64,000 bases of DNA from Verrucomicrobiota bacterium (GCA_038214755.1 JBBQRQ010000016.1:1-64000); one strand, 5' to 3'; positions 26,039 through 50,752 are shown, numbered from the stretch's first letter. Numbers and translations: made by a program. The notes: generated from the sequence alone by a model not told the origin.

Positions 26039-26046
26039 GCGACGAA

Positions 26047-27681: not shown

Positions 27682-27688
27682 CGTCGTC

Positions 27689-32426: not shown

Positions 32427-33206
32427 ATGCAAAAAAAAATCCTGCTTGGTAAAAAGGCTTTTACGCTGATCGAATTGCTCGTCGTCATCGCCATCATCGC
32501 GATCCTGGCGGGATTGCTGTTGCCGGCGTTGGCCAAGGCGAAAGCCAAAGCTCAATCCATCACGTGTCTGAACAATTTAAAACAATGGGGTTTGGGATTC
32601 AGAATGTATGCGGATGATAACAGGGATGCCGTGCCTGAAGAGGGGAACACGCTTGCCGCTATCGATGATCCGGCCAACGTGGACGCCTGGTATAATGGCG
32701 TTGCCCCGCTGATTGGCCAGCAGCCCCTGACCAATTTTTATCTCGCGAGTCCGCGTAATCCGCCTTTGCCAGGAACGAAAACGATTTTTTCATGTCCGAG
32801 TTGCGCTGAACCTAACAATACTTACAAGAAACCGCCCGATTCGGCGCGCGCATTTTTTATGTACGGAGAGAATGGTCGCCTGTGCGTCAATAAATCAACC
32901 CGCGCCGCGGGACTCGGTCAGACCAAGCTTTCCAATATCAAGAAGGTCACTGATACAATTTTCATTGCGGAAGTAGATCCGAATTCCAGCGCTAATACTT
33001 CTCCCGCCCAATCGAATGTGACAGGACAGTACGCGGTGGGTCGCCACGGAGGGGGCAGGGGGAACTTCGCGATGTGCGATGGAAGCGCGCGGCCAGCGCG
33101 AACGAATGAGTTTATTCGCACCCAAGCCGAGTCCAACAGCGGCATCGAAGAATGGAAGATAAACCGGACAATTTATTGGTATCCGTCGGCTGACACCCAG
33201 AATTAA
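32427..33206 (+). CDS. Prepilin-type N-terminal cleavage/methylation protein with H-X9-DG-type C-terminal motif
   Basis: [48 protein letters not shown]. Confidence 0.92.
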
Positions 33207-33215
33207 AAAAAGAAA

Positions 33216-35378
33216 ATGAAAACCATGAAAAATATTCTCATCACCTTCGGTCTTCTGATTGCCTCTGCAATGGGCGTCCACGCAACCGTGGTCTTCAGCG
33301 ATTCGTTCAGTTACGCCGACGGCCCGTTGACGGCGGTATCGGCAGGCATCTGGTCTGCCCATAGCAGTTCAGGAGGAATCTTTGTGACCAACCAACAGCT
33401 CCAGGTGACTTCTTCGTTAAGCGAAGATGACAATGCTCTTCTGGCCGGACAACCTTACACCACCAATAGTCCAACGGTTTTATATTCTGCTTTTAAAGTG
33501 ACGTTCACCGCATTGCCTAATGCGGCTGGAGCTTACTTCGCCCATTTCAAAGATACCAATTCTGGCGCGGCCACCGGATTTGGCGCGCGGGTTTGGGCCA
33601 GCGCAACCAATGCCATCGATAACACCGCCGTTCCTGCCGGCACTTTCCGATTGGGCGTGGGCAATGGCGCTAACGCCAACGCGGCCAGCGGCCAGTTGAC
33701 CAACCAATTAACCACCAATGTCACTTACATCGTCGTAACACGGTTCGTGCCCTCGACTGGTCTGGCGACTATTTGGCTGAACCCTTCGGCGGAATCCGAT
33801 CCGAGTGTTACGGCAACGGATGCCGGCACCACTGCTCGAACCAATCAAATTGATGTAGTGGCTTATGCCTTTCGCCAGAACGCGGGCGAAGGCACGATGC
33901 TGATCGATGATTTGAAAGTAAGCACGGTGTTCAATGATATTGCCGGGGCAAATACATCCCCCTCTATTTCATCAATTGCTAATCGAAACACCGCCGCGAA
34001 CACTCCGACGAGCATTCAATTTACCGTTTCTGATGCAGAGACAAACGCGAATTTCTTAACGGTGTCGGGCAACTCATCCAATACGAATTTGGTTCCGACC
34101 AACAATATTGTTTTCAGCGGGAGTGGAGGCAGCCGCATTGTAACGATTACTCCGGCGAGCGGCCAACAAGGTTCAACGGTGATCAGTATTTCCGTATCCG
34201 ACGGAGTCAATGTAACGACAACGCCATTTACTTTGACCGTCGGCGCACCGAGTGTTTCGGCGATTGCCAATCAGATCACATCATCCAATCAGGCGGTGAC
34301 TATCACTTTTACGGTGGGTGATACGGAAGGGGATAGTTTGACCATTTCCACGACTTCCTCCGATACGAACCTCGTGCCCAATGCGAACATTGTGGTCAGC
34401 GGCACTGGGACAACCCGTTCGATGACGGTGACGCCGGCTACGGGATTGACGGGGAATACAACGATCACTGTGGCGGTGTCGGACGGCTTCAATACGAACC
34501 GAACCAGTTTCGTCCTGACGGTCAAGGTGTTGTTGGGATTGATCTTCTTCGATGATTTTAGTTACCCGGATGGATCACTCTTCGCCAACAGTGTCGTTTG
34601 GCACACCCATAGCGGGACCGCATCGCAACTCCAGGTCAGCAATGGTGTAGCCATCGTGAGCAGTTTGTTGGGCGAAGATGTGAATGCGAACTTGACCAAT
34701 CAGCCGTTCGCCTCCACCAACGGCGTGATTTTATACTGTAGCTTTATTTTAAGTAACAGTCTGCTTCCGTCGGCGAGCGGCAATTATTTCTTACATTACA
34801 AGGATGCCACCACCACATTTCGGGCAAAAGTTTTTGCCAGCACAGCCAATGCGGTCCCGGGCTTTTTTCGATTAGGCATCAATAACACGGGCAACAATGT
34901 TACGGCGGCCGATCAATTCCCCTTGGAGTTAACTACCAATAAGACCTATACCCTTGTCACTCGCTATAATGTTGGAACTGGAGAAACTCGTCTCTGGGTA
35001 AATCCCAATTCAGAAGCGGATCCAAGTGTTGCTGCCACGGATACGCCAATCACGTCCACTATCACCGCAATCGCTTTGCGGGAAGATACTGGATTGGGCA
35101 TTGAGAACATCGATAATTTAAAAGTCGGCACCTCTTATACGGATGTCATGACGGTGACGAACGTCGTGCAGCCTGCACTTTTCGTTTCCAAATCCGGCAG
35201 TAGTGTTCAGCTTGCCTGGACGACGAACGCGGTCGGATACGTTTTGGAAAGCACGCCGAGTCTTTCTCCACCGATTACCTGGACGCCCGTTGGCCAAACA
35301 CCGACTGTCGTGGGCACCAACAACGTTGTGACCCTCACGAGTCCGACGAATAATGCCTTCTTCCGGCTGAGGAAATAG
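33216..35378 (+). CDS. Exported Thr/Asn-rich protein: duplicated beta-sandwich domain, two cadherin/Ig-like repeats, FxRL C-terminal domain
   Basis: Signal peptide; FSDSFSYADG...WSAHS versus FFDDFSYPDG...WHTHS duplication; two FTVxDxE...SSxTNLVP...TP...VSDG repeats; ends FFRLRK. Confidence 0.8.
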   Translation: MKTMKNILITFGLLIASAMGVHATVVFSDSFSYADGPLTAVSAGIWSAHSSSGGIFVTNQQLQVTSSLSEDDNALLAGQPYTTNSPTVLYSAFKVTFTALPNAAGAYFAHFKDTNSGAATGFGARVWASATNAIDNTAVPAGTFRLGVGNGANANAASGQLTNQLTTNVTYIVVTRFVPSTGLATIWLNPSAESDPSVTATDAGTTARTNQIDVVAYAFRQNAGEGTMLIDDLKVSTVFNDIAGANTSPSISSIANRNTAANTPTSIQFTVSDAETNANFLTVSGNSSNTNLVPTNNIVFSGSGGSRIVTITPASGQQGSTVISISVSDGVNVTTTPFTLTVGAPSVSAIANQITSSNQAVTITFTVGDTEGDSLTISTTSSDTNLVPNANIVVSGTGTTRSMTVTPATGLTGNTTITVAVSDGFNTNRTSFVLTVKVLLGLIFFDDFSYPDGSLFANSVVWHTHSGTASQLQVSNGVAIVSSLLGEDVNANLTNQPFASTNGVILYCSFILSNSLLPSASGNYFLHYKDATTTFRAKVFASTANAVPGFFRLGINNTGNNVTAADQFPLELTTNKTYTLVTRYNVGTGETRLWVNPNSEADPSVAATDTPITSTITAIALREDTGLGIENIDNLKVGTSYTDVMTVTNVVQPALFVSKSGSSVQLAWTTNAVGYVLESTPSLSPPITWTPVGQTPTVVGTNNVVTLTSPTNNAFFRLRK

Positions 35379-35396
35379 TTCGCCTAAATCGATCTG

Positions 35397-35436
35397 AAAA
35401 GGACGGCATGCCAGTGCCGTCTTTTTATTTTTTTTC
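35397..35436 (+). terminator. Intrinsic terminator
   Basis: GACGGCA-6 nt-TGCCGTC stem followed by a T tract. Confidence 0.75.
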
Positions 35437-35588
35437 AGCGCCTCCTACCGGGTCGAAAAGAAAAATCACGACGTGATCTGGAACATTCACCGCTGATCGC
35501 GTTCCGCCAGTTCGAGCGCGGATGTCTTTTTCATGAATCAACCGCCCAAGCATTGACGTTTTTGCGGGCCGCGTGACAAACTCGCCAC

Positions 35589-36908
35589 ATGAGCGGGAGC
35601 GACATTTCACCCATTCTCGTTTGTATCGGCGGGCCGGACCTCGGCAAACGTCTCGCCCTCGCCGAGCGCGCCGCGACGATTGGCCGTTCCGCTTCCTGCG
35701 AAGTCGCGAGCGATGATCCTGATGTGAGCGAACGTCACGCCACAATTTTTTTGCGGAACAATCAGCCCGCGTTTTCTACGACGGAAAATGCCGCCGTTTT
35801 CGTCGATGGCCAACGCGTGACGGAAGGTTCCATTCTGCCGCGACAGCAACTCCGCATTGGCCGTTCGCTCTGGCAATTGTCGGATGTCGCCGGCGCAAAA
35901 GATTTTTCCTCCTTTCTCGGCAGCATCGGCGACCGCATCAGCGAAGTTGCGGGCGTGGAAAAAATCGAGGGCTTCAGTCCCACCTCGATGTTCTCCGAGG
36001 TCTTTCGCAAACGCACTGACGAAGAGATGGAGCATTACTTCGCCGCCGGCACGCCCTTGACCACGCCGCCGTTGAGCGAAGTCGATACGAACTGGCCCAA
36101 GCCTTGGTTGTTCCTTAAAATTTTCATCCTGGCCGCGTTCGTCTATGTCGGCTTCGTTTTTGCCTTCAACCAATTTCACAATCCGATTTTGATTCCGGGT
36201 CTGCTCACGATTGGCGCGTTTGTCATCCCCTTTTCGCTGCTGATTTTCTTTTTTGAAATCAATGTGCTGCGCAACGTTCCGCTCTATCAAATTTTCAAGC
36301 TCTTGTTTCTGGGCGGAATTTTGTCCGTCATCCTTTCGCTGTTTTTATTTCGCTGGACGCATTTGCATGATTGGCTGGGCGCCATGAGCGCGGGCATCGT
36401 CGAGGAAGCCGGAAAAGGCGCCGCGCTTTTTCTCGTGATCAACAAATTGAAATATCGCTGGACGCTGAATGGCATGTTGTTTGGCGCGGCGATTGGCGCG
36501 GGCTTCGCGTCATTTGAATCGGCGGGCTACGCGTATTTGGATAGCGATTATGGGAGCGACGCCATGTTGCACAGCATCACGCAACGCGGGATTCTCAGCA
36601 TTTTTGGCGGACATGTTTTGTGGACGGCGCTGGTCGGTGGCGCGTTGTGGCGCGTGCGCGGGGCGGAAAAATTTCATTGGGAAATGCTCAAGGATATTCG
36701 CTTCTTGCGCGTCTATGCGTTGTGCGCGGGAATGCACATGATTTGGAATTCGCCGTTGCGACTTCCCTTGTTTCTAAAATACATCGCGCTCGGTTTCGTG
36801 GCGTGGGTGGCGTTGCTCAGTTTTATTCAATCGGGCTTGCGGCAGATTCGCGCGGCGCAGGCGACGGGTGCAACGGAGTATTTTCAGAGGCAGAAATTAC
36901 AAATCTGA
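35589..36908 (+). CDS. FHA domain-PrsW family intramembrane glutamic protease fusion
   Basis: FHA motifs IGR...VSERHA...FVDG; PrsW motifs VEEAGK, GFASFES and HMIWN; multiple TM helices. Confidence 0.85.
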   Translation: MSGSDISPILVCIGGPDLGKRLALAERAATIGRSASCEVASDDPDVSERHATIFLRNNQPAFSTTENAAVFVDGQRVTEGSILPRQQLRIGRSLWQLSDVAGAKDFSSFLGSIGDRISEVAGVEKIEGFSPTSMFSEVFRKRTDEEMEHYFAAGTPLTTPPLSEVDTNWPKPWLFLKIFILAAFVYVGFVFAFNQFHNPILIPGLLTIGAFVIPFSLLIFFFEINVLRNVPLYQIFKLLFLGGILSVILSLFLFRWTHLHDWLGAMSAGIVEEAGKGAALFLVINKLKYRWTLNGMLFGAAIGAGFASFESAGYAYLDSDYGSDAMLHSITQRGILSIFGGHVLWTALVGGALWRVRGAEKFHWEMLKDIRFLRVYALCAGMHMIWNSPLRLPLFLKYIALGFVAWVALLSFIQSGLRQIRAAQATGATEYFQRQKLQI

Positions 36909-36955
36909 GGGGCATCCATATAGAAGACGTTTAACGCAAAGACGCTACGGCAAAA

Positions 36956-37180
36956 TTAATCGCCGTTGCTGGTTGCATCTGACGTCACCACCGCACTGAT
37001 CATCAATCCTGACAAGATGGAGACGAGTCCTTCATCGTCCGAAATTACTACCCGCCCGCCTGACGGTGGAAGATAAATGTGATCAATCGTCGGCACAGGA
37101 TATTCGCGACCATCAGCCGTGCGCACAAAAAACGGAATAAACGGTGTGGTCGCCAGATGTTTGCGGATGTCGCCGGTCAT
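36956..37180 (-). CDS. Small conserved hypothetical protein (PFxPF...DGRxY type)
   Basis: 74-aa ORF with PFIPFFVRTADGREYPVP, a motif I associate with small PVC proteins. Confidence 0.55.
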   Translation of the reverse strand: MTGDIRKHLATTPFIPFFVRTADGREYPVPTIDHIYLPPSGGRVVISDDEGLVSILSGLMISAVVTSDATSNGD

Positions 37181-37278
37181 GGAATGAAGCTAGACGAAAC
37201 GTTGAATGGGCGCAAGGAATCCGAGGATGGATTCCGAATATGAGATTTTTCGCCAAAATTTTGAGAAGGAAAAAAAAT

Positions 37279-37454
37279 AACCCCACCGTAATGCCGTGGC
37301 CACAGTTCCTTTGAACTTAAGTGAAACAGTGGAACCCAATCGGCGGCTTTCGACTTCCAGTCAAGGCCTGTCGGCCGCACAGCGAAGGCAAGGTTCCGTT
37401 ATTTGTTTAATTACGGTCCAAGGATTTGTTTCTGAACACGAACATGGCAGGGTT
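37279..37454 (-). ncRNA. ssrS: 6S RNA
   Basis: Minus strand folds as a rod: AACCCTGCC-ATGTTCGTG pairs with CACGGCAT-GGTGGGGTT, CCTTGGAC with GTTCAAAGG, then an A-rich central bubble and GGAACC/GGTTCC. Conserved 6S words ATGTTCG, GTTCAA.GG and GGCAT; about 176 nt; followed by a T run. Confidence 0.8.
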
Positions 37455-37595
37455 AAAATCCTGAAATTTTCTGGCAAAGAACTTTTGCGCGGCTCCATTT
37501 TCCTCGCGCTTCGATGGAGAAATTTATGGCGTAAAATTTACTTTCTCTCAAGCTTAAACTTTGAATTTTTGGAAAATGTTTTTCCGCGAAGACAT

Positions 37596-37741
37596 CTCAT
37601 TAACACCCTGCTTTAGCTGGGTGGTCAGGGTGCGAAAAGTTTTTAACCGTTTTAACGGTTTTTCGCCCGCAACCGAAACCATTAAAACGGTTAAATCATT
37701 TCACGTCATCTCAGCACCCAGTTGAAGCAGGGTGTTAATGA
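37596..37741. repeat. Family A palindromic element (third copy)
   Basis: CTCATTAACACCCTGCTTTAGCTGGGTG, an AACCGTTTTAACGGTT pair, then CACCCAGTTGAAGCAGGGTGTTAATGA. Confidence 0.85.
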
Positions 37742-37748
37742 AAAATCA

Positions 37749-39188
37749 CTACGCCAAAATTTCTTTCACGACTTTCCCGCTCACATCGGTCAGCCGGAAA
37801 TCCCGCCCGCTGTAGCGATAGGTCAGTTTCTCATGATTGATGCCCATCAGATGCAAAATCGTTGCGTGCAAATCGTGGACGTGAACTTTATTTTCGGTCG
37901 CGTGCCAGCCGAATTCATCCGTCGCGCCGTGAACGACTCCACCTTTCACGCCGCCGCCCGCCAGCCACATCGTAAAACCGAATGGATGATGCTCGCGTCC
38001 GTCCGTCCCTTCCGCCGTCGGAGTGCGCCCGAATTCTCCGCCCCAAACCACCAGCGTGTCTTCCAACATTCCTCGCGCTTTTAAATCCTTCAGCAAACCG
38101 GCAATTGGCTTGTCCACCGCCGCGCAATTGTTCGGCAATTCTTTTTTCAAATCACCGTGTTGATCCCAAAGCTGGCAACTTTTTCGTTTCTCCGTTTGCG
38201 TGTGATAAACCTGCACCATGCGCACGCCGCGCTCGGATAATCGCCGAGCCATCAAACATTGCTTGCCAAAAATTTCCGTGGTCGCATCGCCGATGCCGTA
38301 AAGTTTTTTCGTTTCGTCAGATTCATTTTCGATATCAAAAGCTTCCGGCGCTTTGGCCTGCATCCGAAACGCGAGTTCAAACGATTCAATGCGCGCGCTG
38401 AGACGACTGTCCTCATCGCGCTCTTTTTGGTGAAGCATGTTGAGTTGCTTTAGAACGTCGAGTTGATCGCGCTGTTGCTTCGAGGAAAAAAGTGGATTGC
38501 GCAAATTATCAATCGGATTTTTCAAATCGGAAACGAGCGTGCCTTGATGCGAAGCGGGTAGAAAACTCGAACCCCACAATGGCGCGCCTTGCGCCGGTTG
38601 CGCCGGGCTGATGACGACAAATCCCGGAAGATTTTGATTCTCACTTCCCAAACCGTAAAGCAACCACGAGCCAAGACTCGGCCGCGAAAACGCCTGCTCA
38701 CCCGTGTTCATCTGCAGACAGGCGCCATTGTGATTGATGTTGTCCGCGACCATCGAACGAATCACGCACATCTCATCCACACACGTCGAAATGTGCGGAA
38801 AAAGTTCACTGACCTCAGTTCCGCATTGGCCGTGCTTCTGAAACTTCCACGGCGAGCCGAGAAGATTTCCCGTCTTCGTCCGCTCCAGTTTGGGTTTCTC
38901 GAACGGCAACGGCTTTCCCATGTCCGCGAGCAAACGCGGCTTGGGATCAAACGTATCCACGTGCGAGGGCCCGCCGGACATGAAGAGAAAAATAATGCGC
39001 TTTGCTTTCGCCGGAAACGGTGACGGTTTGACAGAAAGCGGACTTGCCGAATTTTCCGCGGCCAAAACGCTGCTGAGAAAATCTTCCGACAACAGATTCG
39101 CCAGACCCAACAGGCCGAAGCCGCTGGCGAAACGGCGCAACATTTGCCGTCGCGTCATGGGTTGAAAACATTGGCTGGAAAATCTCAT
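37749..39188 (-). CDS. DUF1501 domain protein
   Basis: TRRQML, GGPSHVDTFDPKP, WGGEFGRTP and HVHDLHAT motifs. Confidence 0.93.
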   Translation of the reverse strand: MRFSSQCFQPMTRRQMLRRFASGFGLLGLANLLSEDFLSSVLAAENSASPLSVKPSPFPAKAKRIIFLFMSGGPSHVDTFDPKPRLLADMGKPLPFEKPKLERTKTGNLLGSPWKFQKHGQCGTEVSELFPHISTCVDEMCVIRSMVADNINHNGACLQMNTGEQAFSRPSLGSWLLYGLGSENQNLPGFVVISPAQPAQGAPLWGSSFLPASHQGTLVSDLKNPIDNLRNPLFSSKQQRDQLDVLKQLNMLHQKERDEDSRLSARIESFELAFRMQAKAPEAFDIENESDETKKLYGIGDATTEIFGKQCLMARRLSERGVRMVQVYHTQTEKRKSCQLWDQHGDLKKELPNNCAAVDKPIAGLLKDLKARGMLEDTLVVWGGEFGRTPTAEGTDGREHHPFGFTMWLAGGGVKGGVVHGATDEFGWHATENKVHVHDLHATILHLMGINHEKLTYRYSGRDFRLTDVSGKVVKEILA

Positions 39189-39201
39189 TTGGTAACGGCG
39201 C

Positions 39202-42200
39202 TTAATCTACATAAATAAATTCGTTCGCGCAAAGCAGGACCTGGCAATATTTCTCCCAGGCGAATTCAGCAGGTTCTATTTTGTCATCGGATTCAGCAGG
39301 CGATTTCGCGATCACTCTTTCGCCGATTTCGATTTCCTGCGCTGAAGGCAAACGGCCGTAGAGATTCTCGTAAAGCCACGAAATCTTTTCGCGATTAGTT
39401 TTCGTTTCGCTTTTCAACCGTTCAACCAGTGCTTTGGTTTGCGCGAGAACGAACGGATGGTTGAGCAGAAACAACGCTTGCGGCGACACGGTGGAATCAG
39501 TGCGCTTTTCCACAATCGCGTTTGGATCAGCCGCATCGAAAAGAAATTGATACGTCGCTCGGTCGGAACGAATCGTCGTCACGTAAAGCGTGCGGCGGTT
39601 CGTGCTGAAATCGCGCACCGACGGTCCGCCCAAAGTCAAATCCAGCTTCCCCGCAATGCTCAATAAACTGTCGCGCAAAGCTTCTGACTCCAAACGATGC
39701 CGATTCATCCGGCCAAATAATCTGTTGTCCGGATCAACGAGTGACGCAGGCTTCCAGCCTGCGTTTTCACGGGCATCTTGCCCTCGTGCAGAAGTTGGCC
39801 GCGAAGCTGGAAGCTTCGCGGCTGGCAGGCTGGAAACCTGCCCCACTACCGAACTCTGCTGATACGTCGCAGACAACATCATCGCCCGGTGCATTGCTTT
39901 GATCGACCAGCCGGACTTCACAAATTCATTCGCCAGAAAATCCAACAACTCCGGATGCGTCGGCGGCTCACCAAGTTTTCCGTAATTGTTCGGCGTCCGC
40001 ACAATTCCTTCGCCGAAATGATGCTGCCAGAGTCGATTTACCATCACGCGCGCGGTCAACGGATTTTCTGCGCTGGCGATCCAATTCGCCAACTGCAAAC
40101 GCCCACTCCCGTCGGAAATCGCCGGCTGATTTTCGCCGGCGAGAATTCGCGGAAATTTTCTTGGCGCGCTTTCTCCAAGTCGGTCGTAACGACCGCGCAC
40201 CTGAATGTTCACATCGTGAATTCCAGCCATCGAACTTTCTGGAACACCGCCCTCCTGCAAACCATGAGCGAACAAAATTGGCGGCGGCGAATTGCTTTTC
40301 AATTCGGCCAATTCAGTTCTCAATTTTCCGAGAGCGCTTTTGGTTTCTGACGAAAAAAGTTTTTCGTCTGTGCGAATCGGCGACCAAAACGCGCCGCGCG
40401 CCGTCATCAAATCCTCCTGCAAACTTGGAGTCGTCTTCGCTCTCAGATTTTCCTGAAGTTCCCCGGCAACTTTCGCCAGTTCATTTGAGTTTTTGGATTT
40501 TTGGCCCAACAAGGAAACAATTTTTGCGAGAGGAGAATTCGTCTCGCCAAAACTTTTTGGCGCGTTGGCGAGATCGATGAAATGCCAGACGGCAGCGTTG
40601 CCAAAAGTATCGGGGCGCGGATTTTGTTTCAGAAAATCCGTGGCGACTTCGTTCGTGAGATTCCAGACGCGTTTCGCTCCGTCCAGTTCCACGATTTGCA
40701 AATCGAGCAGCGTGGTGTCGCACACATGATCGCCTTTCGGCAAAATGGTGAGTTGAATCATTTCGCCCCGCGCCACTTCGAGCGACTTCAAATTTTCCTG
40801 CTCATCCAGAGTTTGCGAGCTGGCGTTAGCAATCGCGCCGCTGGCAATTTGTTTCGCGCCGCGCATCACGTTCCATTCGATGCCATCGCCGCACGCCGCG
40901 TCCGCGTCCACCACGCGCGCGTGAATTTGAACCTTTCCCGCAATCGGACTTTTCCAACCGACCGCCACACCCGTTTTCGGCGCGGGATGGAGCGCGAAAT
41001 GATGCGGCGGAATTTTGGCGAATTCTTTCTCGCTCGAATTGTAGAGGATGGCGGGCGTATCCTCCGCTTTGGAATTTTTCCAGGCGAGCAAACCGATGTT
41101 GCCCGACAAATCTTTCAGTGGGTTTGGAAAGAGACCGAGATACCCGTCGTCAAGAAATTCTGTCCAGCGTCGGAGAACGGTCTCGTGCAAATTTTGCTGG
41201 GTAGCAGCCGACGTGAGGAGGCGGTGATCGTCAGAACTCGAATCCGCCTCGTCACCTCGGCGGCTACGATCTAAAATTTCCCACGCCGCAAAAATGTAAT
41301 CTGGAATTTGCGGAATCAAATTTGTCGCCAGCAATTCGACGGCTTCAACCGAAGTTTTCTCAATCTGTTTTTCCAATTCCACCAGGCGCGCCTCGCGTTT
41401 TTTGCGATGCTCCGTTTCTGTTTTGGAAAGGAGCGGAATGCGCATGAGAGTTTCTCCCGCGCCTTTCGGCATCAATTTGGAAAGGATGTGGCTGCTGGAG
41501 AAAATTCCGGCGAGCGAATAATAATCTGCCGTCGGGATCGGATCGAACTTGTGGTCGTGACAACGCGCGCACGCCAGCGTCAGTCCGAGAAACGCGCGAC
41601 CCGTCACGTCAATCTGGTCATCGACGATGTCCGTTAAAATTTTTTCTTTGTCCGCGTCGCCGTTGCCCCAATTGCCGATGGCGTAAACTCCCGTCGCAAT
41701 GAGCGCGTTGGTGTCGAATTCGCCGCCGGATTTTTCCGCGAGCAAATCCCCGGCGATTTGTTGCTGAATAAATTTATCGTAAGGCAGATCCCGATTGAAC
41801 GCGTCCACCACCCAGTCGCGATAACGCCACGCATCGAGGCTATCGCTTTCCTGGCCGAGCACGCGTGAATCGAGCGAATCGGTGTAGCGCACGACATCGA
41901 GCCAATGCCGCGCCCAGCGCGCGCCGTATTGCGGTGACGCCAGCAAACGCTCGACGACATGGGTGAATGCGTTGGTCGAAGGGTCATTGAGAAAATCAGA
42001 AATTTCTTTTGGCGTCGGAGGCAAGCCAATCAAATCAAATGTGGCGCGGCGAATTAGAGTCCGTTTATCAGCGGGCGGCGCGGGAGAAATATTTTTCTGC
42101 TCGAGCTTCGCCAAAATAAAATTGTCGATGGGGGATTGCGCCCATTTTTTATTTTTAACTTTTGGAACTTTCGCAACTTTTGGTTTTTGAAAAGCCCAAT

Positions 42201-42648
42201 TCGTTCGCGCCGTCGCGAAATCGTAAGGCGATTTTTGATTTTGAACTTTGGCCTTTGAACTTTGAACCAACTCCACTCTCGGATCGGGCGCGCCCATTTT
42301 CACCCACGCTTCGAGATCGGCAATTTGCGCAGCGGAAAGTTTTCCGCCGGCTTTTTCCGGTGGCATCTGCAAATCCTTGTCCGTGTAGCGAACCGCTTTG
42401 ATGAGCAGACTTTTTTCAACATCGCCGGGAATAATCGCTGCGCCGGATTCACCGCCCTTGAGCATTCCCGCCTCGCTGTCGAGGAATAATTCGCCCTTAA
42501 GTTTTTCCGCAGCGGTGCTGTGACATTTGTAGCAATGCTCGACGAGAACCGGGCGAATCTTTTTTTCAAAAAACTCAAAATCGTCGGCCCTGATTTCGCG
42601 GCAAATCAGCGACAGAAAAATCAACAGTCCTGCAAAAAAAGCACGCAT
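39202..42648 (-). CDS. PSD1 and planctomycete cytochrome c domain protein (PSCyt1 + DUF1549 + DUF1553)
   Basis: FFEKKIRP...CYKCH, CARCHDHKFDP, VNRLWQHHFG and NEFIYVD motifs; ATG 42648; contains two in-frame REP insertions. Confidence 0.92.
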   Translation of the reverse strand: MRAFFAGLLIFLSLICREIRADDFEFFEKKIRPVLVEHCYKCHSTAAEKLKGELFLDSEAGMLKGGESGAAIIPGDVEKSLLIKAVRYTDKDLQMPPEKAGGKLSAAQIADLEAWVKMGAPDPRVELVQSSKAKVQNQKSPYDFATARTNWAFQKPKVAKVPKVKNKKWAQSPIDNFILAKLEQKNISPAPPADKRTLIRRATFDLIGLPPTPKEISDFLNDPSTNAFTHVVERLLASPQYGARWARHWLDVVRYTDSLDSRVLGQESDSLDAWRYRDWVVDAFNRDLPYDKFIQQQIAGDLLAEKSGGEFDTNALIATGVYAIGNWGNGDADKEKILTDIVDDQIDVTGRAFLGLTLACARCHDHKFDPIPTADYYSLAGIFSSSHILSKLMPKGAGETLMRIPLLSKTETEHRKKREARLVELEKQIEKTSVEAVELLATNLIPQIPDYIFAAWEILDRSRRGDEADSSSDDHRLLTSAATQQNLHETVLRRWTEFLDDGYLGLFPNPLKDLSGNIGLLAWKNSKAEDTPAILYNSSEKEFAKIPPHHFALHPAPKTGVAVGWKSPIAGKVQIHARVVDADAACGDGIEWNVMRGAKQIASGAIANASSQTLDEQENLKSLEVARGEMIQLTILPKGDHVCDTTLLDLQIVELDGAKRVWNLTNEVATDFLKQNPRPDTFGNAAVWHFIDLANAPKSFGETNSPLAKIVSLLGQKSKNSNELAKVAGELQENLRAKTTPSLQEDLMTARGAFWSPIRTDEKLFSSETKSALGKLRTELAELKSNSPPPILFAHGLQEGGVPESSMAGIHDVNIQVRGRYDRLGESAPRKFPRILAGENQPAISDGSGRLQLANWIASAENPLTARVMVNRLWQHHFGEGIVRTPNNYGKLGEPPTHPELLDFLANEFVKSGWSIKAMHRAMMLSATYQQSSVVGQVSSLPAAKLPASRPTSARGQDARENAGWKPASLVDPDNRLFGRMNRHRLESEALRDSLLSIAGKLDLTLGGPSVRDFSTNRRTLYVTTIRSDRATYQFLFDAADPNAIVEKRTDSTVSPQALFLLNHPFVLAQTKALVERLKSETKTNREKISWLYENLYGRLPSAQEIEIGERVIAKSPAESDDKIEPAEFAWEKYCQVLLCANEFIYVD

Positions 42649-42728
42649 TATTTTTTCAAGATGGACAATGCGAAATATAGGGGGTGCCCCATGGAAGTTA
42701 AATTCCAATTTGCGTGGAGGTCGAATGA

Positions 42729-43124
42729 TTACCAACGCAGCACTTCCAATCCCGCCACATAATCAAAATGGGAATCGCGAGCAGCCAAGGATAAGTGATG
42801 TTCCCGGGCAATGGCAGAAATCCAAATATCATTTTCGGGAATAGGTGTGCCGGCTTTTGCCAGGGCCGCTCGAATTTGGCCGTAGTGCTCGGCGGTAGTT
42901 TGATTTGGATTAAGAACGATGACGGCGGTTAGAAAATCTTTGATTTTTGCGAGACTCCCCGCCGGGTTCGTGGACAGATATGCGCCGCAATAAAGTTCGC
43001 CTAATGCCGTTTGCGGCAAGTAACGCGTGGAGTATTCTTGCAGCCGCTGGCGAATGGCAGCCTCGCCTCGGAAGTAACGAACGATGACTGAAGTATCCAG
43101 CAGAATGTCACCACTGGCTGGCAT
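42729..43124 (-). CDS. vapC: VapC family PIN toxin
   Basis: LLDTSV, GELYCGA, PIPENDIWI and RDSHF motifs. Confidence 0.92.
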   Translation of the reverse strand: MPASGDILLDTSVIVRYFRGEAAIRQRLQEYSTRYLPQTALGELYCGAYLSTNPAGSLAKIKDFLTAVIVLNPNQTTAEHYGQIRAALAKAGTPIPENDIWISAIAREHHLSLAARDSHFDYVAGLEVLRW

Positions 43125-43326
43125 CAATTCTTTCGCAGTTGGACTGAATGGCGTTTTCCATGACGTCGGCCTCGTCGTCAGTTAAGCAGCCATAAGCACG
43201 ATCCAACGCTTGCTGCCGCTCGGCTGGCGTTGGTTCTTTGAGGTGATGAATATAATCCGCGGCTTCGCGCAATTTTTTTGGAGGAAGTGTTTTGAGTTCT
43301 TCCACGATGACTTCGAGCGCACTCAT
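43108..43326 (-). CDS. Putative antitoxin
   Basis: 72-aa ORF overlapping the vapC start (LP...EAADYI). Confidence 0.75.
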   Translation of the reverse strand: MSALEVIVEELKTLPPKKLREAADYIHHLKEPTPAERQQALDRAYGCLTDDEADVMENAIQSNCERIDASQW

Positions 43327-43392
43327 GGTGAGAAGATAAAGAGCACGCCGCGCCCTGGCAAGTGTTGTCCGGGAAATGTGATCTGAGAAATC

Positions 43393-45036
43393 TTATTTTT
43401 TCAGCCGAAAAAACTTATTTCCGCTGGAGGCGTTCACGGTGACGGTGTTATTGGTTCCTGTAACCACCACGGGCATGGTCACGTCGGTCCAAACATTTGT
43501 CGCCAAAAAAGCAGGGAGTTCTTGCAGCACAAATCCCGTGAAATTCGTCGGCCAGGAAACGACGACATTTGGCGTGTTCAACGTGATCGCGAGCGCAGGT
43601 TGCGCCGCCACGGCGAGGACAGTGATGATGCCCGTGCCGGCGAAGTATTCGTTGTTCTGCACCGCCGCAGTGCTCAAGGTGCTGCCGTAGGTTCCGGATG
43701 CTTGCGTGACTCCTCCGAGTCTTAACGCGCCAACAGTTTCATTGATCCCCGCGCCGAGTTCCACGTAGCCTTGATCTGCTACTCCCGCTGTTCCGCCGCC
43801 GGCTAGCGTCAATGTCGCCGTGTCGGCGATGGCGTTGATTACACCTGCTTGGATGGTCAGTTTCGCAATCGCACTTGGCGCCGCCGCGTTGTCCACTGTC
43901 ACGTTGCCAGAGCCGAGCGTTGCCGCTGCGCCGCTCACGGAAATAATTCCGCCGTTAACCAATGTTCCACCCGCGTAGCTGTTGCTGGCCACGAGAATAA
44001 GCGATCCCTGATCCACATTGCTGGTCGGAGCCGTCAGGGTCAGGCGACCCGGACCGCTGATCGATTGTGAGAATGTGAGCGAGCCAACCGGTGCGGGAGT
44101 GCCCCCAGTGCCCGCCGTGGCTTGAACATGAATTAATGTGTCCGATTGGAGAACGACCACATTGCTAATCGTCGCGATAAGGCCGGAGTCATTTCGGATT
44201 GCGCCGGGAAAAGCAGCAAAGGGTCCGGTCACGGCTCCGGTGCCGTTGAGGTTTAACGGGCCGCTGCCGAAAGTATAATTGCCATTGGCGCTGATCAAGG
44301 TGAGTTGCGCGCCGGAATTAATTGTGAAACTGGAAGTCCCCGAAGGTTGCGCGGCCGACGAAATGCGCGTCCTTCCCCCATTTAAGACGGTTGCTCCGGA
44401 ATAGGTTTTTGCGCCGGTCCCAAACGTGGCCAGACCATCGCCTTGTTTAGTGATTCCGCCGGGGCCGGAGGTGGACGCGGTGAGGTTCAGTGCGCCCGAG
44501 GCGGAAGTCGCCGTAATGTTACTGACAGTGGCCACCAGAGAATCGGTGAGCGTCGTTGGCGCTGAGATGGCGTAATTCCCTGTGCCGACCGCAGCGGGAA
44601 TGGAGATCGTTGCTGGTCCAACGCCCGTTTCATCAAAGATGAGAGAGCCACCTGTTCCAGCGGTTAGAGAAGTCGTAAATGCATTAGCGGCGTCGTTGTT
44701 AAACAGGATTGATCCCACCGTTTGCGCGGCATCGGCGGTCACGCTGCGGTTGGCATTTTGGGCGGGGTTGGAAGCGCTCGCTGCGTTGTTGAAAATCGGG
44801 CTGGCGCCAATGGCATTGGGCACACTCGCGGGATTCCAATTTGTCGCCGTGATCCAACTGGCGCCCGCTGGCTGATTCCAAGTCTCGGCGCGTGTCGAAG
44901 TAGCATTGCATAAAAAGAATGCGGCCGCGCCGGACAATAGAAATAGCCAGATTCGGAAAGGTGCGTGTCGAAAAGAAAACCGCGCAGTTGCCACAGGAGC
45001 GGGAAACGAAATGTGAGTGAAGGCTTTATTTTTCAT
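43393..45036 (-). CDS. Exported protein with autotransporter-associated beta-strand (PATR) repeats and FxRL C-terminal domain, no beta-barrel
   Basis: TKQGDG...TYSGATVLNGG and NSYAGGTLVNGG repeats; ends SWPTNFTGFVLQ...W...FFRLKK; ATG 45036. Confidence 0.8.
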   Translation of the reverse strand: MKNKAFTHISFPAPVATARFSFRHAPFRIWLFLLSGAAAFFLCNATSTRAETWNQPAGASWITATNWNPASVPNAIGASPIFNNAASASNPAQNANRSVTADAAQTVGSILFNNDAANAFTTSLTAGTGGSLIFDETGVGPATISIPAAVGTGNYAISAPTTLTDSLVATVSNITATSASGALNLTASTSGPGGITKQGDGLATFGTGAKTYSGATVLNGGRTRISSAAQPSGTSSFTINSGAQLTLISANGNYTFGSGPLNLNGTGAVTGPFAAFPGAIRNDSGLIATISNVVVLQSDTLIHVQATAGTGGTPAPVGSLTFSQSISGPGRLTLTAPTSNVDQGSLILVASNSYAGGTLVNGGIISVSGAAATLGSGNVTVDNAAAPSAIAKLTIQAGVINAIADTATLTLAGGGTAGVADQGYVELGAGINETVGALRLGGVTQASGTYGSTLSTAAVQNNEYFAGTGIITVLAVAAQPALAITLNTPNVVVSWPTNFTGFVLQELPAFLATNVWTDVTMPVVVTGTNNTVTVNASSGNKFFRLKK

Positions 45037-45198
45037 ACGATTTGTGGGCAGCGAGAAACTATGGCGAAAAAAATGGAGACACCAATAATAAAATGTTGAG
45101 GTCGTTTTCAAAGCGCCCAACGGGACCTCCACCGCCGTGTTTGTCCGTTCCGACGCGCCTCACCTAAACTCGCAGAGCAAGGGTATTCTTCCTCGAAC

Positions 45199-45261
45199 GG
45201 AACGCCGATCTTCTGATCGGCATGCTCATGTTCTACGAGCCGATCGGGAGATCGGCGTTCC
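45199..45261. repeat. REP doublet
   Basis: GGAACGCCGATCTTCTGATCGGC...GCCGATCGGGAGATCGGCGTTCC. Confidence 0.7.
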
Positions 45262-45313
45262 GGTTTCAGTCGGTGAAATAACTTTGCCGTCGAACGGCGC
45301 AAACTCCTTGTTT

Positions 45314-46054
45314 TTATCTGACCGACAAAATTTCTCCGCGCAGCCGGCCCACAAATTCATTGGGCATTCGTGAATCAATTGAGTCGGTCAATGGTTTTTC
45401 CAACTCAACATGGCCGTCGCAAAAAACCACGTTAGCTTTTTTTTGATGACGGAAATGCGCGGTTTTTTCCGCGACGCTGTTAGTTACATAATAAAATTCT
45501 TCGAGCATCGGATTGGAGGGCGAGGCGGGCGCTTGAAACGTGTTCACTTGCGCGGCATCGGCGAGCAAAGCGATTCGAGTGGGGCGAGCCAGTTTGGAAA
45601 CGTTGATTGGTGGATGATTCGTCGGCGAGGAGAGATGCAAGTTGTAACCGTAGCCGTAAGCCGCGCCTTTGGCTTTCAGTTTGAAATTGGCCGCAGCATA
45701 ATTCAGCGAGGGACAAATCTCCACGCCGCGACCTTGTAGATAGGGAAAGAGCGCGCCTTGGGTCGGATCGAATTCGCGTGACCCTTCCGCGCCGCGCTCC
45801 ATCCAACCAAACCAAAAAATGTCGCCGCCATTCGTCAAGGCGCCGCGATAGCGAAATGCATTTCCCGCGTTATCGTCCCAATACATTTGCGCAGCCATTC
45901 CAAACTGATGCAAATTCCCAACGCATTTGATTCGTTGCGCGGACTTTTTACTGTGGGCGAGCGACGGCAAAAGCAGCGCGGCGAGGATGGCGATGATGGC
46001 GATGACGACCAGCAGTTCTATTAAGGTGAAAGCTTTACCAATATGCTTTTTCAC
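45314..46054 (-). CDS. Prepilin-type N-terminal cleavage/methylation protein with H-X9-DG motif
   Basis: [26 protein letters not shown]. Confidence 0.92.
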
Positions 46055-46092
46055 AGGGGTTTAATTGAAATGGTTTCTCGCTTCACTAGTCA

Positions 46093-46842
46093 TTAATTTG
46101 AAGGCACGATTGCGTAATCCGTATTTCGCAGATGGTCTGGTGGCGGCTTCAATATCTTTGATGCCACGTGTCCATCCACAAAGGCCAGGTTGCACTCGTA
46201 TTTGATTGGATCGTGCATCTGTAGATAGGCGTAATTCGCCGCGCCGTAGGTATAAAACTCCGTCGTGCTCACCGTAAAATCACCGGCCATCACCAGCAGC
46301 GAAACTTCCTTGAGACTCTCAGGCCGTCGGCTCCAAAGTACCTCCGTCGTCGGATATTCAAAGGCCTTGCTTGTTCCATTCTTATCCAGGATGGCCGCTT
46401 GATAGGCGTAGCTGCTTCCATAGATCTTGTAAAAGCTGCCTGCATAAATAACTGGATCAAGCCCCGAGCCTGCGCGGTAGCCTTTGTCCAAGGGACATTC
46501 GGCGACGAACTCGCCCATGTAGCGCGTCAAGAGCCGTTCGCTGTTGTTGGTTTTGGTAGCGGTATTTTTTCCGCCCCAAAGATAATAGCGGCAGTTCTGA
46601 AACAAGCTGTCCGTGGTAGGTTTGTTACTCTTGTCGTATTGAGGCAGCTTGCCGTTATTGTCCGGAACATAGAGTAGGACCGCCAGAGCGACCTGGTGGA
46701 GGTTTGAGGTGCACTTGATCTTCCTGGCTTTTAACTTCGCTCGGCTCAATGCCGGCAGTAGCAACCCCGCGAGAATGGCGATGATGGAAATGACGACCAG
46801 TAGCTCGATCAATGTAAAAGCTACTCTGGTTCGCGCGGACAT
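46093..46842 (-). CDS. Prepilin-type N-terminal cleavage/methylation protein with H-X9-DG-type motif
   Basis: [23 protein letters not shown] 46842. Confidence 0.9.
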
Positions 46843-46846
46843 GGGC

Positions 46847-47647
46847 TTAATCTTCCAGATACCAGAACGAATGGAGGGGATTATTAGCAGAATCCACTGC
46901 CCAAAGTTTTTTGTAGGCCACTCGCTCGACGTGTCCATCCAGCAGCGATACGTTAGCGCCATTGCTATGCGCGGTGGGACGTCCATGACTATAGGGGCCG
47001 TATTGTTGGGCGGTGTCGTTCATTTTATCCAAGTCCCAATCAGCGTTGAATTTCAAATAAGCCGGAGAGTAAACATAAGGAGTGGTCGCTCCTTGTGTGT
47101 CGGTGAACATCAAAGCATCATGGGGCTTTTTGATTTTCGTGCCTCTTAATGCGGGGCGAGTGCCACCTGGCTCAATATTGTAATAAAAGGGAGCAGTGAG
47201 TGGGTTTCCCCACACTCCGAATGGGACGCCAACCCAACAGTTCCATGTGCCGCCCCAAGTCACCCCAGTCTTTTCATAGAGCGGTGGTGCTGCAATACTA
47301 CCGCCTGGGCATTTACGGATCGTCGCTGATTTTATGTTATTGTCTGCGGCATTTATCGCAGTTTCCTTTTTACCAACGTAAGGCGCGAGGTTCTCAAAGA
47401 CCCCGGGCTGATCCGGCACATTAAACTGAGAAGTAAAAAACGGAACCTGATCCTTGTTATCGCCCATATACATGCTCAGAGCATAAGCCCAATTCTTCAT
47501 GTTCGACGCGCATGAAATGGTATGCGCTTTGGCCTTGGCTTTGGCCAGCGCTGGCAACAACAATGCCGCGAGAATCGCGATGATAGCGATGACTACCAAT
47601 AACTCGATCAAGGTAAATCCTTTACCTATTGGATTGATTGGTTTCAT
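46847..47647 (-). CDS. Prepilin-type N-terminal cleavage/methylation protein with H-X9-DG motif
   Basis: [29 protein letters not shown] 47647. Confidence 0.92.
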
Positions 47648-47699
47648 TATTCGTTTCTCCACTCTATGACGAGCAATCAAGATCCCTGTAAGCTCTACT

Positions 47700-50606
47700 C
47701 TACGGCTGAAAATAGATGAGGCGATAGAATGCCGTGCCATTGGTCGGATTAGGCGTGATTGTGACATGATTCGTGGTCAACGTGCCCGCTACGTTTACCC
47801 AGTTATTGCTAATACCAACAGTGATTGGGTTGATTTGCGATTGCAAGCGCCAGCCGATATTTCCAGCAGGCCAGGTAATGTCGAGTTGGTTGTTACTGAA
47901 TTGTGCTGTCATGGTGGGGGGAATAAGGCTGACAACGCGAAGCGTGCCATCGCTCGTCAGCGTATTTGTATTCCACGCCAAATCAGTGCCTGGCGAAGAT
48001 GGCACGATGCTGGTAAAGGCTCCAACATAAGGACTGTAATTTGCAGTCGGATTGGCAACGGTTGTGGCGGAAAATAATTTGAGAGCATCGCCCGCGACCA
48101 ATGGACGTCCGCTGAGTGAGAGATTAAGTGTGCCGCCATAGGTGACTTTGTTTAACCCAATTACTTTGTCGTATGTCGTATCGAGATTGGCCTCAATCGC
48201 AGTCGTGCTGCCATCCGCCAACACCAGGTTGTTGCTGATCGTTATCGTGCCTATGGATGCGCCGGGACTAAAGGTGCCGCCATTTTCCACCGTCACCGGG
48301 CCCAAGAGGGTGCCGGTGCCAGCCAGGGTGGCTCCGTTTTTTACGCTTACAGGAGAAATACCAAGCCCGCCATTTACCATCAGCCTGCCAGCATTAACAC
48401 TGACTGCGCCGACGAAGCTATTTGGGTTGCTGAGAGTCAATGTGCCAAGACCTGACTTAGTCAAAACCGTTGAGCCAGTGATATTGCCACTACCCGAGAA
48501 GGAATAGTTGTTATCTGAAGCAACCGTGACACTGGCAGGGGCTACCGCGCCGCTGATATTTACCGTTCGATTTGTCGAGGTATCATCGAAGGTCACTGCG
48601 TCCAGACTATAGAATTTCTCGGTGCCATTGTTCCAGCTTGCAGCACTATTATAGTTCCATAAATTTCCACCGCCACCAAACCAAATGAGGTTGCTGGTGG
48701 AACCACTGACGGTAAGATTTATGTTGGGAGCGGTAGTTGCGTCAAAGGCGAAGGTATAACGGCTATTGGCAAGTGCGCCGCTCATTTGCAGGTTATTGGT
48801 GCCGCCCACCAAAGTGCCGTAAGTCATCAACGTGTAGGTGCCTGAGGCGATGGTTCCGCTCGCTGCACTCACCTCTACTGTGTTCACACCATTGAGCGTC
48901 AGTATATTGGTAACACTGATCTGATCGTTCAGATTGACGGGCGAATCCAGGTCGAAGCGCAAAATAGCACTGTTCAAAGTAAGATTTGTCTTCACCGCGA
49001 GCGTGCCGATGACGCCGCGCGCCACGGGAGCCAAAGCTTGCCCCGGATAAACAATGAAATCGGTAACGGGAGTAGTTTGATTGATGAAACTTGCGCTAAG
49101 CGTTCCGTAATTCGTCAGCGTTCCGAGCCCGATATTCAACGTAGTCACCGTAATGTCTCCCGGGACCGTATCGCCCGCTGGCATCATATCCAGAGAGCCA
49201 CCGGCATTGATGGTGAGAGTGTTGGTGCCCCTGAAGCCGGGCGGGCTGTTGTCCCCAAGGTTGCCCGACACTCTCACCTGACCACCATTGATGGTGAGTG
49301 TGCCGTTGCCGGCGGTGGATACGTCGCCAGCGTCGAATCCCATGTTGATGTTTCCCGCGACCAAAGTGGCATTGGTCCGCACGTTGACCGTCCCGATGGC
49401 TCTGCTGTTATTGTTGAACCGCTGACAGCCGATGTTCAAGGTAGTCACGTCGCATATACCCGCACCTAACGTCAACGTGCCAGTGCCATTGGCCGCTGTG
49501 AGGTTGTTATAACCATTGCCCGAACCGACAATCATTTTGTCCACCAGGATATCCACGGTGCCAAGGCTGAAGTCCATCGTGCCCACGGACGCGACCGTGG
49601 CCGAGTTAGGAATGTCATTGTCTCCAATTCCAATTTCCGCCATCCGACTAATACCATCCGCATTGCGCAACTTGATTGTCGGATTGATCGAACCGGCGCG
49701 GAACCTCATCGTTCCACCAGTGCTCGCTCTTGCGCCTCCAATCGTGATTGCTTCCGTGTTGATCGTGTTCTCCTGTCCCAATTCCACCAAAGTAAGATTG
49801 CCGCTCGCATTGGCATAACGGTTCACCGCGACGGCGAAGGGAGAAATCGCTAACGGAAATTGATCGGTTTTCGGTCGCGCGGCAGTAATGACATTGGTCT
49901 TGGCCAAAAGCACTGAACCCAGTGCCCTATCAATATTTGTATATTGAGCGCCAGCGACAAGAGGGGAAACACCGTTGCCACTTACTTGAAATCGCCCTCC
50001 GCCAAATGTGAAGTTATTCAACCCGGCCATGTCCAACATTCCTTTATGGGCCCCCGAATTGGCCGTGAGCGCTCTGGCACTAATTGTAATGTCCAGATTG
50101 GTATTAGGTGAAGCCAGATTACCTACGGCGAGAGTGCCCAGGCCAAGAATGGTCGCATAGAATAGATCAATGCTGCCCACGTTGTCCCCGCCGACAAGCA
50201 AGACGTACGCATTCGTAGTGGCTGAAGTAACAGTGGAGTTAGCGGTCAGCGTCACACCTGGATTGATTAAGGTCGTATGGGTGTTCACCGCAATGCTGTT
50301 GGAAACGGCTGAGTATAGCAGGTTGCTGATCGTGATGTTGGCGTTCACCGTATTGTTCGTAGCCCCTATAACATTGGTGGAACCGCTGTTGGTAAAAGTC
50401 ACCGAATCGGACGCAGTGGGCACTTGAGCGGGCGACCAGTTATTGGGATCCGACCAACTGTTGGTGAGGACCGAGAGGCCTGTCCATATAAGCGGAGCAG
50501 CGTGGATTTTAATTCCACCAAGGTAAAAAATTACAGCGAGCCACGTCGCCATTATGCGGCAAGGATGGAATGGGGTTCGAGGGAGCCGTGGCAATTGGAG
50601 ATACAT
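47700..50606 (-). CDS. Large exported beta-helix/PATR repeat protein with FxRL C-terminal domain
   Basis: Signal-like N-terminus (start 50606 or 50552); G/T/N-rich; [19 protein letters not shown] repeat; ends ITWP...GWRLQ...W...FYRLIYFQP. Confidence 0.8.
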
Positions 50607-50752
50607 AGATTTAAGTTGGTTGCATTTTCGCGTGAGACTCATCTGGAATCGCCCAGATGAAAATCACGCAGCGGAAGGGTTTGAAACGACACAGACAGAG
50701 AAACAAAATGGGAAAAGAGCGTCAAATGAATAAGCGCTAATTTTTCTAATCG

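Follow-up and report, generated by a model that had tools for sequence, protein, structure and literature searches.

The region studied here raises the question of why three exported proteins with unrelated bodies end in the same tail domain close to pseudopilin genes, and whether tail and pilins belong to a single export system. The window, a stretch of 64,000 nucleotides from a Verrucomicrobiota bacterium (GCA_038214755.1, JBBQRQ010000016.1:1-64000), represents contig C16 of a 5.1 Mb genome that is 97% complete. The tail genes and pilin genes of the region 32427..50606 are as follows.

32427..33206, plus strand: H-X9-DG-type pseudopilin (259 aa; N_methyl and DUF1559 over cut-off) that has 33216 as its conserved partner
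33216-35378, plus strand: ORF of an exported 720-aa protein with two related ~210-aa domains, two Ig/cadherin-like domains and an FxRL tail
35160..35375, plus strand: FxRL tail domain of 33216, predicted to be six-stranded and Fn3-like with strand G absent
43393..45036, minus strand: exported protein with passenger-associated repeats and an FxRL tail at 43396-43611, barrel-less
45314..46054, minus strand: H-X9-DG pseudopilin (TIGR04294 over cut-off)
46093..46848, minus strand: H-X9-DG-type pseudopilin, with the ATG that precedes RTRVAFTL as its start
46847..47644, minus strand: H-X9-DG pseudopilin (TIGR04294 over cut-off) from a subfamily whose neighbours vary
47700..50642, minus strand: exported 980-aa protein with a passenger-associated repeat and an FxRL tail at 47703-47927, barrel-less

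The initial annotation had described three unrelated exported proteins ending in a common FxRL tail, and the ORFs indeed end as it quoted them. Signal-peptide-like starts were found in the 33216, 43393 and 47700 proteins (3/3). The 43393 frame runs to 45132 on the minus strand with the likely ATG at 45036, and the 47700 frame runs to 50642 on the same strand, position 50606 being Met13. The description of two of the three as barrel-less proteins with autotransporter-type passenger repeats was also correct: TIGR02601 exceeded its cut-off (19.85 bits) in 43393 (29.8 bits) and 47700 (29.3 bits), Pfam PATR was over cut-off in 47700 only among the three tail proteins, and no autotransporter beta-barrel family was listed for them at E<=0.1. 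A classical autotransporter (type Va) was rejected, since the C-terminal beta-barrel is absent and the proteins end in the tail. The two ~210-aa domains of 33216 had no Pfam match and, judged by their pattern, might be ConA/lectin-like; the 33216 cargo family had no sequence relative in PDB.

Exactly four prepilin ORFs occur on the contig, all co-oriented with the tail genes as had been claimed, and TIGR02532 (prepilin cleavage/methylation motif) was over cut-off in all of them. Their common designation as H-X9-DG pilins was right in part, as the N...DG motif is kept in 4/4, whereas TIGR04294 (H-X9-DG) passed its cut-off in 45314 and 46847, remained below it in 32427 and was absent in 46093. 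The head of pilin 32427 was predicted to have a type IV pilin fold (pLDDT 84.5, best Z 4.0), and the H-X9-DG segment was placed in the sheet of this predicted fold.

Prepilin genes numbered 89 among the 4198 genes identified with our own gene caller. Adjacency was defined as a co-oriented tail gene next to a pilin, with other pilins skipped. A tail gene adjoins 35/89 pilins, compared with 4.7 in shuffled gene order (maximum 16 in 2000 shuffles), 8.6 in within-contig shuffles (maximum 21) and 4.6 for length-matched genes, which bears out the enrichment of the tail beside H-X9-DG pseudopilins that had been expected. The tail neighbours belong to pilins carrying the family N-terminal signature (35/73) and to none of the 16 conventional pilins (p 1.4e-4), while 38 of the 73 signature pilins have no tail neighbour. 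Viewed from the tail, 29/158 tail genes are pilin-adjacent against 14/404 other large exported genes (p 2.5e-8), and 129/158 have no adjoining pilin; the set of 158 used for these neighbour tests contains one complete Fn3 (C58:708). No catalytic Pfam domain was detected at E<=1e-5 in the 22 pilin-adjacent cargoes scanned, from 26 outside the window. LamG was found in six of these, legume-lectin, F5/8, Ig or Calx-beta domains in others, and eight were without a match; the cargoes linked to pilins thus resemble glycan-binding proteins that lack catalytic function. Within the genome, cargo of similar pilins is related in only a minority of cases (8/48 vs 37/692).

Orthologues of pilin 32427 were found at 47 loci (two pairs share an assembly), four of which were too short to test. 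In 40 of the 43 testable loci, a 33216 homologue is the directly next gene; one of the remaining loci has the homologue behind a second pilin, and two are without it. The flanking genes all vary around this pair, whose members are 9 bp apart in the window. The closest loci are from Verrucomicrobiota, Limisphaerales, Pedosphaera and Limisphaera, with a few labelled otherwise. The pair is present in Limisphaera isolates. Intact 33216-type cargoes have the FxR end in 34/36 cases and variant tails in two. Additionally, orthologues of pilin 45314 lie behind one family of ~320-450-aa tail proteins at 5/5 loci in five families. In the present genome, this usual partner lies apart (C69:3974-4957), and the window neighbour 43393 is not of that family, so that 32427-33216 is the only window pilin-neighbour pair conserved as such. 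Pilins of the 46847 type adjoin tail proteins with passenger repeats in 2/11 loci. Among 120 genomes of the order, no close homologue of 43393 and one of 47700, likewise tail-bearing, were found at E<=1e-40. A genome of another family (G013) has 116 pilin loci; among the best 30, six have a tail that ends within 1.5 kb upstream (0.5-1.0 expected). In two genomes of another class, adjacency was found at three distinct places among 30 short loci, one of which has the order PEP-tail-pilin-pilin-pilin. Pilin-cargo fusions in one genome (G024) were considered and rejected, as the long open frames with a pilin motif are shadow frames.

The best reading of these results, to which we assign a probability of about 0.45, is that of two separable modules: a tail that is likely a non-covalent surface anchor, and pilin-cargo pairs that are likely cognate on a T2SS/T4P machine. 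For the pilin module, each H-X9-DG pseudopilin would likely be a dedicated minor pilin that recruits the neighbouring exported protein to a shared machine; that the pilin binds its neighbour and exports or displays it has, in our estimate, an even chance. The cargo would pass the inner membrane via Sec, as suggested by signal peptides on proteins free of lipobox and helix, and the co-encoded pseudopilin would undergo processing and assembly into a pseudopilus or pilus, presumably by one of the machines present in the genome. The variable pilin head would then bind the cargo, more likely by its body than by its tail, and carry it through the secretin or display it, a step suggested by the gene pairing and the analogy with TcpB-TcpF. 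Finally, the tail would bind a surface component shared by all cargoes and so take the place of the membrane anchor that PEP-CTERM provides, for which terminal position, tail swapping and tandem arrays argue. The genome contains 4 secretins and 12 T2SSE-family ATPases. Judged by sequence and gene order, C20 carries a full T2SS operon, which includes conventional pseudopilins of its own, and C5 and C19 each have pilMNOPQ-like operons.

TcpB-TcpF of V. cholerae TCP and CofB-CofJ of ETEC CFA/III likewise have a pilin encoded with one exported protein, and the pairs described here are co-encoded and conserved as in TcpB/TcpF, for 45314 and its partner as well as for 32427-33216. For TCP, specificity is attributed to the minor pilin, to which the export signal binds (PMC10120004). 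Those systems have one pair each and a disordered N-terminal signal, whereas the present case comprises 73 paralogous pilins with a type IVa-like leader and folded multi-domain cargo whose binding is putative. T2SS substrate choice is described as an open question in the same source (PMC10120004). If true, the proposed pairing would provide many natural matched and mismatched pairs for testing adaptor-based T2SS recognition, as well as a role for DUF1559/H-X9-DG pilins. As a separate observation, clustering of 141 tails gave two subtypes, with a pilin neighbour in 22/69 of one and 4/72 of the other (p 6e-5), and all three window tails are of the pilin-favoured subtype. This subtype bias of pilin-linked cargoes is not explained by the best reading.

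Gene adjacency is equally expected from co-regulation. The alternative that survives best, which we regard as possible but less likely, is that these are co-regulated nutrient-capture loci without physical pairing. The pseudopilins would then be ligand-binding pilus subunits encoded next to binding proteins or hydrolases that are anchored at the surface and share their substrate, and the tail would be a surface anchor. In three tail-less genomes, a LacI, GntR or AraC regulator adjoins 9/25 pilin loci, and several pilins of tail-less lineages adjoin GH123-like, LamG or esterase genes, as would suit such loci. Glycoside-hydrolase-like genes are also neighbours of 46847-type pilins at several loci, and one conserved operon includes a molybdate/tungstate-type binding protein and a Rieske protein. 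Mirror distances between pilin and cargo in 24 pairs gave a weak signal, which is in keeping with co-regulation: the two repeated domains had rho values of 0.14 and 0.19, the Ig part 0.05 and the tail 0.02. Against this alternative stand the strict one-to-one order of pilin then cargo at 40/43 loci with all flanks varying, the spacing of 9 bp in the window, and the upstream regions of 69 pilin operons, in which no shared motif reached significance (p 1e-5 for the best of very many patterns). In the same tail-less genomes, about 12/25 pilin loci continue with a protein that has a signal-peptide-like start as judged by eye, and the exported neighbours include GH123-like, LamG and DUF4874 proteins (38/47 neighbours scanned). 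Since tail-less genomes pair pilins with exported proteins, the pairing is wider than the tail.

For the tail itself, the starting profile consisted of the three window tails alone and was then iterated with position ignored. At E<1e-3, this three-tail profile matched 39 domains of the genome, of which 37 lie within 15 aa of a C-terminus, indicating that the shared tail is more than chance, and the iterated profile converged at about 180 domains. With the tight profile, 178 domains were identified in 174 proteins: 158 C-terminal (89%), 12 N-terminal, mostly right behind a signal peptide, and 8 internal, including two in tandem before a terminal copy and three complete Fn3 domains. The ends of proteins hold 170/178 tail domains. 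The initial annotation had asked whether the tail is strictly C-terminal, which describes most copies but not the N-terminal and internal ones or the tandem arrays. It is ~70 aa in length and marks about 4% of the genes in the genome; mean identity among tails is 23%, with F and R of the FxRL pattern conserved in 93% and 96%, respectively. Among tail carriers, 153/158 are without a membrane helix and 0/158 showed a lipobox pattern. The expected occurrence on signal-peptide proteins was supported by a crude rule that 125/155 tail carriers pass, as do 784/1648 other long proteins. Carriers that are not pilin-adjacent (18 scanned) include a subtilase, a metallophosphatase and two cyclophilins. 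The tail is present in 20/20 relatives (19/19 leaving out G009) and in 92/250 genomes of the phylum. It would serve to label the surface proteins of Verrucomicrobiota that are abundant in soil and sediment.

The initial annotation knew of no named family for the tail. In comparisons of 63 tails with Pfam and NCBIfam, no family matched more than one member, Pfam fn3 matched 0/63, and TIGR02595 gave no match; the tail domain is uncatalogued in that it is absent from both collections. The GxPGS domain NF058592 was rejected as a candidate (14 bits on one tail against a cut-off of 45, and none in the genome). A search of the ESM Atlas with the tail returned 30 clusters, all unnamed. Literature searches, with most subscription papers outside their coverage, returned no description of the tail or of the pilin-cargo pairing. 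Taken together, the tail family is real and large as well as uncatalogued.

The AlphaFold2 model of the tail has six strands (pLDDT 93). Its best fold matches were Fn3 and Ig domains at a middling Z of 5-7, led by 6nmy_D (Z 7.0, rmsd 2.7, 70 aligned), whereas Foldseek with the tail model gave no match at E<=0.001. The bacterial Fn3 3mpc was matched both in sequence (E 3e-5) and in fold (residues 4-76 of 96 covered). These matches cover Fn3 strands A-F, and the tail chain stops 2-9 residues past strand F, while complete Fn3 domains of the same genome, which the tail profile also picks up, go on into strand G (N..G.S..S). The period of tail arrays is 70-85 aa vs ~99 aa for complete Fn3, and the tyrosine-corner position of Fn3 is R/K/Q in the tail by our own alignment. 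Unlike fibronectin III, the tail is terminal rather than in linker position. The tail is predicted to be a six-stranded Fn3 sandwich that ends before strand G; as strand G is absent and the fold matches run from A to F, FxRL would be strand F of a folded domain. The view of FxRL as a sorting tag agrees with its terminal position and its swaps with PEP-CTERM, but the pattern appears to be a domain strand and not a linear signal.

The swaps were found in two places. In one orthologous operon at 8 loci, adjacent paralogues that are 38-49% identical end one in PEP-CTERM and the other in the tail, and TIGR02595 was over cut-off in 8/8 of the PEP-CTERM paralogues. In the present genome, one of 29 PEP-like proteins recognized by pattern (C11:10720) has a body 48% identical to that of the adjacent tail protein. 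The exchange of PEP-CTERM and tail on the same body is thus documented by two independent events. Exosortase was found in 91/92 tail-positive genomes and 91/158 others, kin among these genomes not being independent, and the present genome has two exosortases. PEP-CTERM is described as a portable C-terminal module with many copies per genome on signal-peptide proteins (PMC1569441). The tail resembles it in all these respects, in being exchangeable on the same body and in co-occurring with exosortase. PEP-CTERM differs in combining a motif with a membrane helix and a basic cluster; the tail has no helix, forms a folded, soluble domain and is also found N-terminally and in arrays.

The tail profile matches 86,774 representatives, a count in which complete Fn3 domains are included. 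Among the top 150, which were sorted by a crude pattern rule under a ranking that favours multi-copy proteins, 64 are mainly arrays of the G-less form with a period of about 70-85 aa at the C-terminal end, 20 are Fn3, 61 are mixed, and 4 are G-less but non-terminal. Tail arrays have 3-8 copies. Because array-internal copies have neither a free C-terminus nor strand G, a binding module for avidity fits better than a cleaved signal, and we infer that the tail may act in this way. SLH, dockerin and choline-binding repeats can occupy either terminus of exported proteins that are otherwise unrelated, as one copy or as several in tandem. The tail is like them in being terminal at either end and single or in tandem, and differs in its fold, its diderm host and a receptor that is putative. 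From these patterns, it seems fairly probable that the tail anchors exported proteins non-covalently.

A bolder proposal, which we consider doubtful, is a combinatorial system for export and display in Verrucomicrobiota, in which H-X9-DG pseudopilins, dozens to hundreds per genome, would be plug-in adaptors that each load one cognate cargo onto a shared T2SS/T4P machine. The strand-less Fn3 tail would borrow the missing strand from a partner and thereby lock the cargo into a surface layer built by exosortase. A pattern search for donors of strand G gave 18 proteins with a lone G-like motif in at most two copies each, none of which was convincing.

A model in which the tail acts as a T9SS CTD-like export signal that the H-X9-DG pseudopilins of a T2SS-like machine would recognise is improbable. 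The C-terminal share of 89%, the FxR kept by 34/36 intact orthologous cargoes and the subtype bias among pilin-adjacent tails would suit such a signal, but at the genome level there is no association: tail and pilins occur together in 55 of 250 genomes, the tail alone in 37, pilins alone in 102 and neither in 56 (odds ratio 0.82), where absence means not found with the query used, with 23 and 10 candidates scored per genome. The tail occurs in only 8/74 pilin-rich genomes. Families f31 and f38 have pilins in 60/60 genomes and the tail in 0/60, family f36 has the tail in 9/9 and pilins in 0/9, and five tail-positive, pilin-negative genomes all have secretins. Moreover, a single tail common to all cargoes could not account for the specificity of 73 different pilin heads, and N-terminal copies and arrays of up to 8 are unlike a signal of this kind. 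The T9SS CTD (PF18962/TIGR04183) is, like the tail, a ~70-aa beta-sandwich with a conserved last strand that ends unrelated Sec-exported proteins; it is single and strictly C-terminal, in contrast to the tail with its N-terminal and tandem copies and Fn3-like topology. PF18962, TIGR04183 and TIGR04131 matched 0/63 tails at E<=0.1, and the fold matches listed included no T9SS CTD chain. Queries for the T9SS machinery (SprA) and its CTD family (PF18962, TIGR04189) gave no match in this genome, control genomes being equally silent. The initial view of tail and pilins as one exporter is partly supported: conserved cognate pairs were found, and tail and pilins are unassociated across the 250 genomes; one obligate system is not supported, and two separable modules are the best reading.

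Least probable of all is that the tail does not act in localisation and instead binds an outside substrate, in the manner of a CBM, or serves as a stabilising cap. In favour of this idea, CBM32 domains match part of the tail sequence, over strands B-E (E 1e-5), CBM56 resembles it in structure (Z 5.5), and the conserved S-W-R pattern may be structural, as in F5/8 domains. CBMs, however, shuffle freely to internal positions whereas 170/178 tails lie at an end, and the tail is also carried by proteases, phosphatases and cyclophilins and replaces PEP-CTERM.

In the Verru_Chthon cassette (TIGR02596, 02598, 02599, 02600), verrucomicrobial pilin-like genes lie beside large PEP-CTERM proteins with autotransporter-type repeats. 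The window pilins differ in scoring 20-25 bits on TIGR02596 against a cut-off of 70, and the region has the tail in place of PEP-CTERM and no fixed four-gene cassette. Membership was rejected, as the cut-offs of TIGR02596/02599 were not reached and the four-gene cassette is absent. Additionally, candidates for DUF1559/H-X9-DG pilins numbered hundreds in some of the genomes searched.

A pilin gene belonged to a conserved operon in eight of the compared loci from other sequence records (L137, L138, L140-L142, L148, L149, and L151), lying at position ~6000 in most, together with genes for a molybdate/tungstate-type binding protein, a PEP-CTERM protein, and a paralogue of the latter bearing the FxRL tail. 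This arrangement suggests that this pilin is part of a metal- or anion-uptake unit. In L141 the operon additionally encoded a Rieske protein, located behind an HTH-PBP regulator, whose C-terminus resembled the tail. Clearly verrucomicrobial-type loci also occurred in records whose titles name Bifidobacterium, Acidoferrum, Sulfotelmatobacter, or Pseudomonadales (L094, L100, L102, L122, L127, L128, L137, L138, and L150), and these organism labels may be wrong.

Elsewhere in the source genome (G000), the secretin of a pilMNOPQ-like operon was followed after 40 bp by a tail-bearing NHL-repeat protein (C5:54633-62333), possibly occupying a PilY1-like adhesin slot. A double-tail protein was co-oriented with an exosortase gene, with PEP-CTERM genes nearby (C49:27713-35356). 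Seven tail genes lay together with three pilins and two PEP-CTERM genes in a dense island (C11:4468-31724). Four N-terminal tail copies were missing the FYR strand in addition to strand G, leaving only strands A-E, and led into low-complexity linkers (C11:40339, C93:16833, C14:17826, and C23:18972).

The window contained other genes as follows:
~23477-30058: large pair-like cluster, second to the pair at 37749-42735
35589-36908, + strand: fusion of an FHA domain and an intramembrane protease of the PrsW family, immediately following tail-bearing gene 33216
37749-42735, - strand: Planctomycete cytochrome c/DUF1549/DUF1553 and DUF1501 pair
58385-59746, - strand: dnaA

The FHA/PrsW-family gene was not seen as a conserved neighbor in the orthologous loci. 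A replication origin may lie near dnaA.
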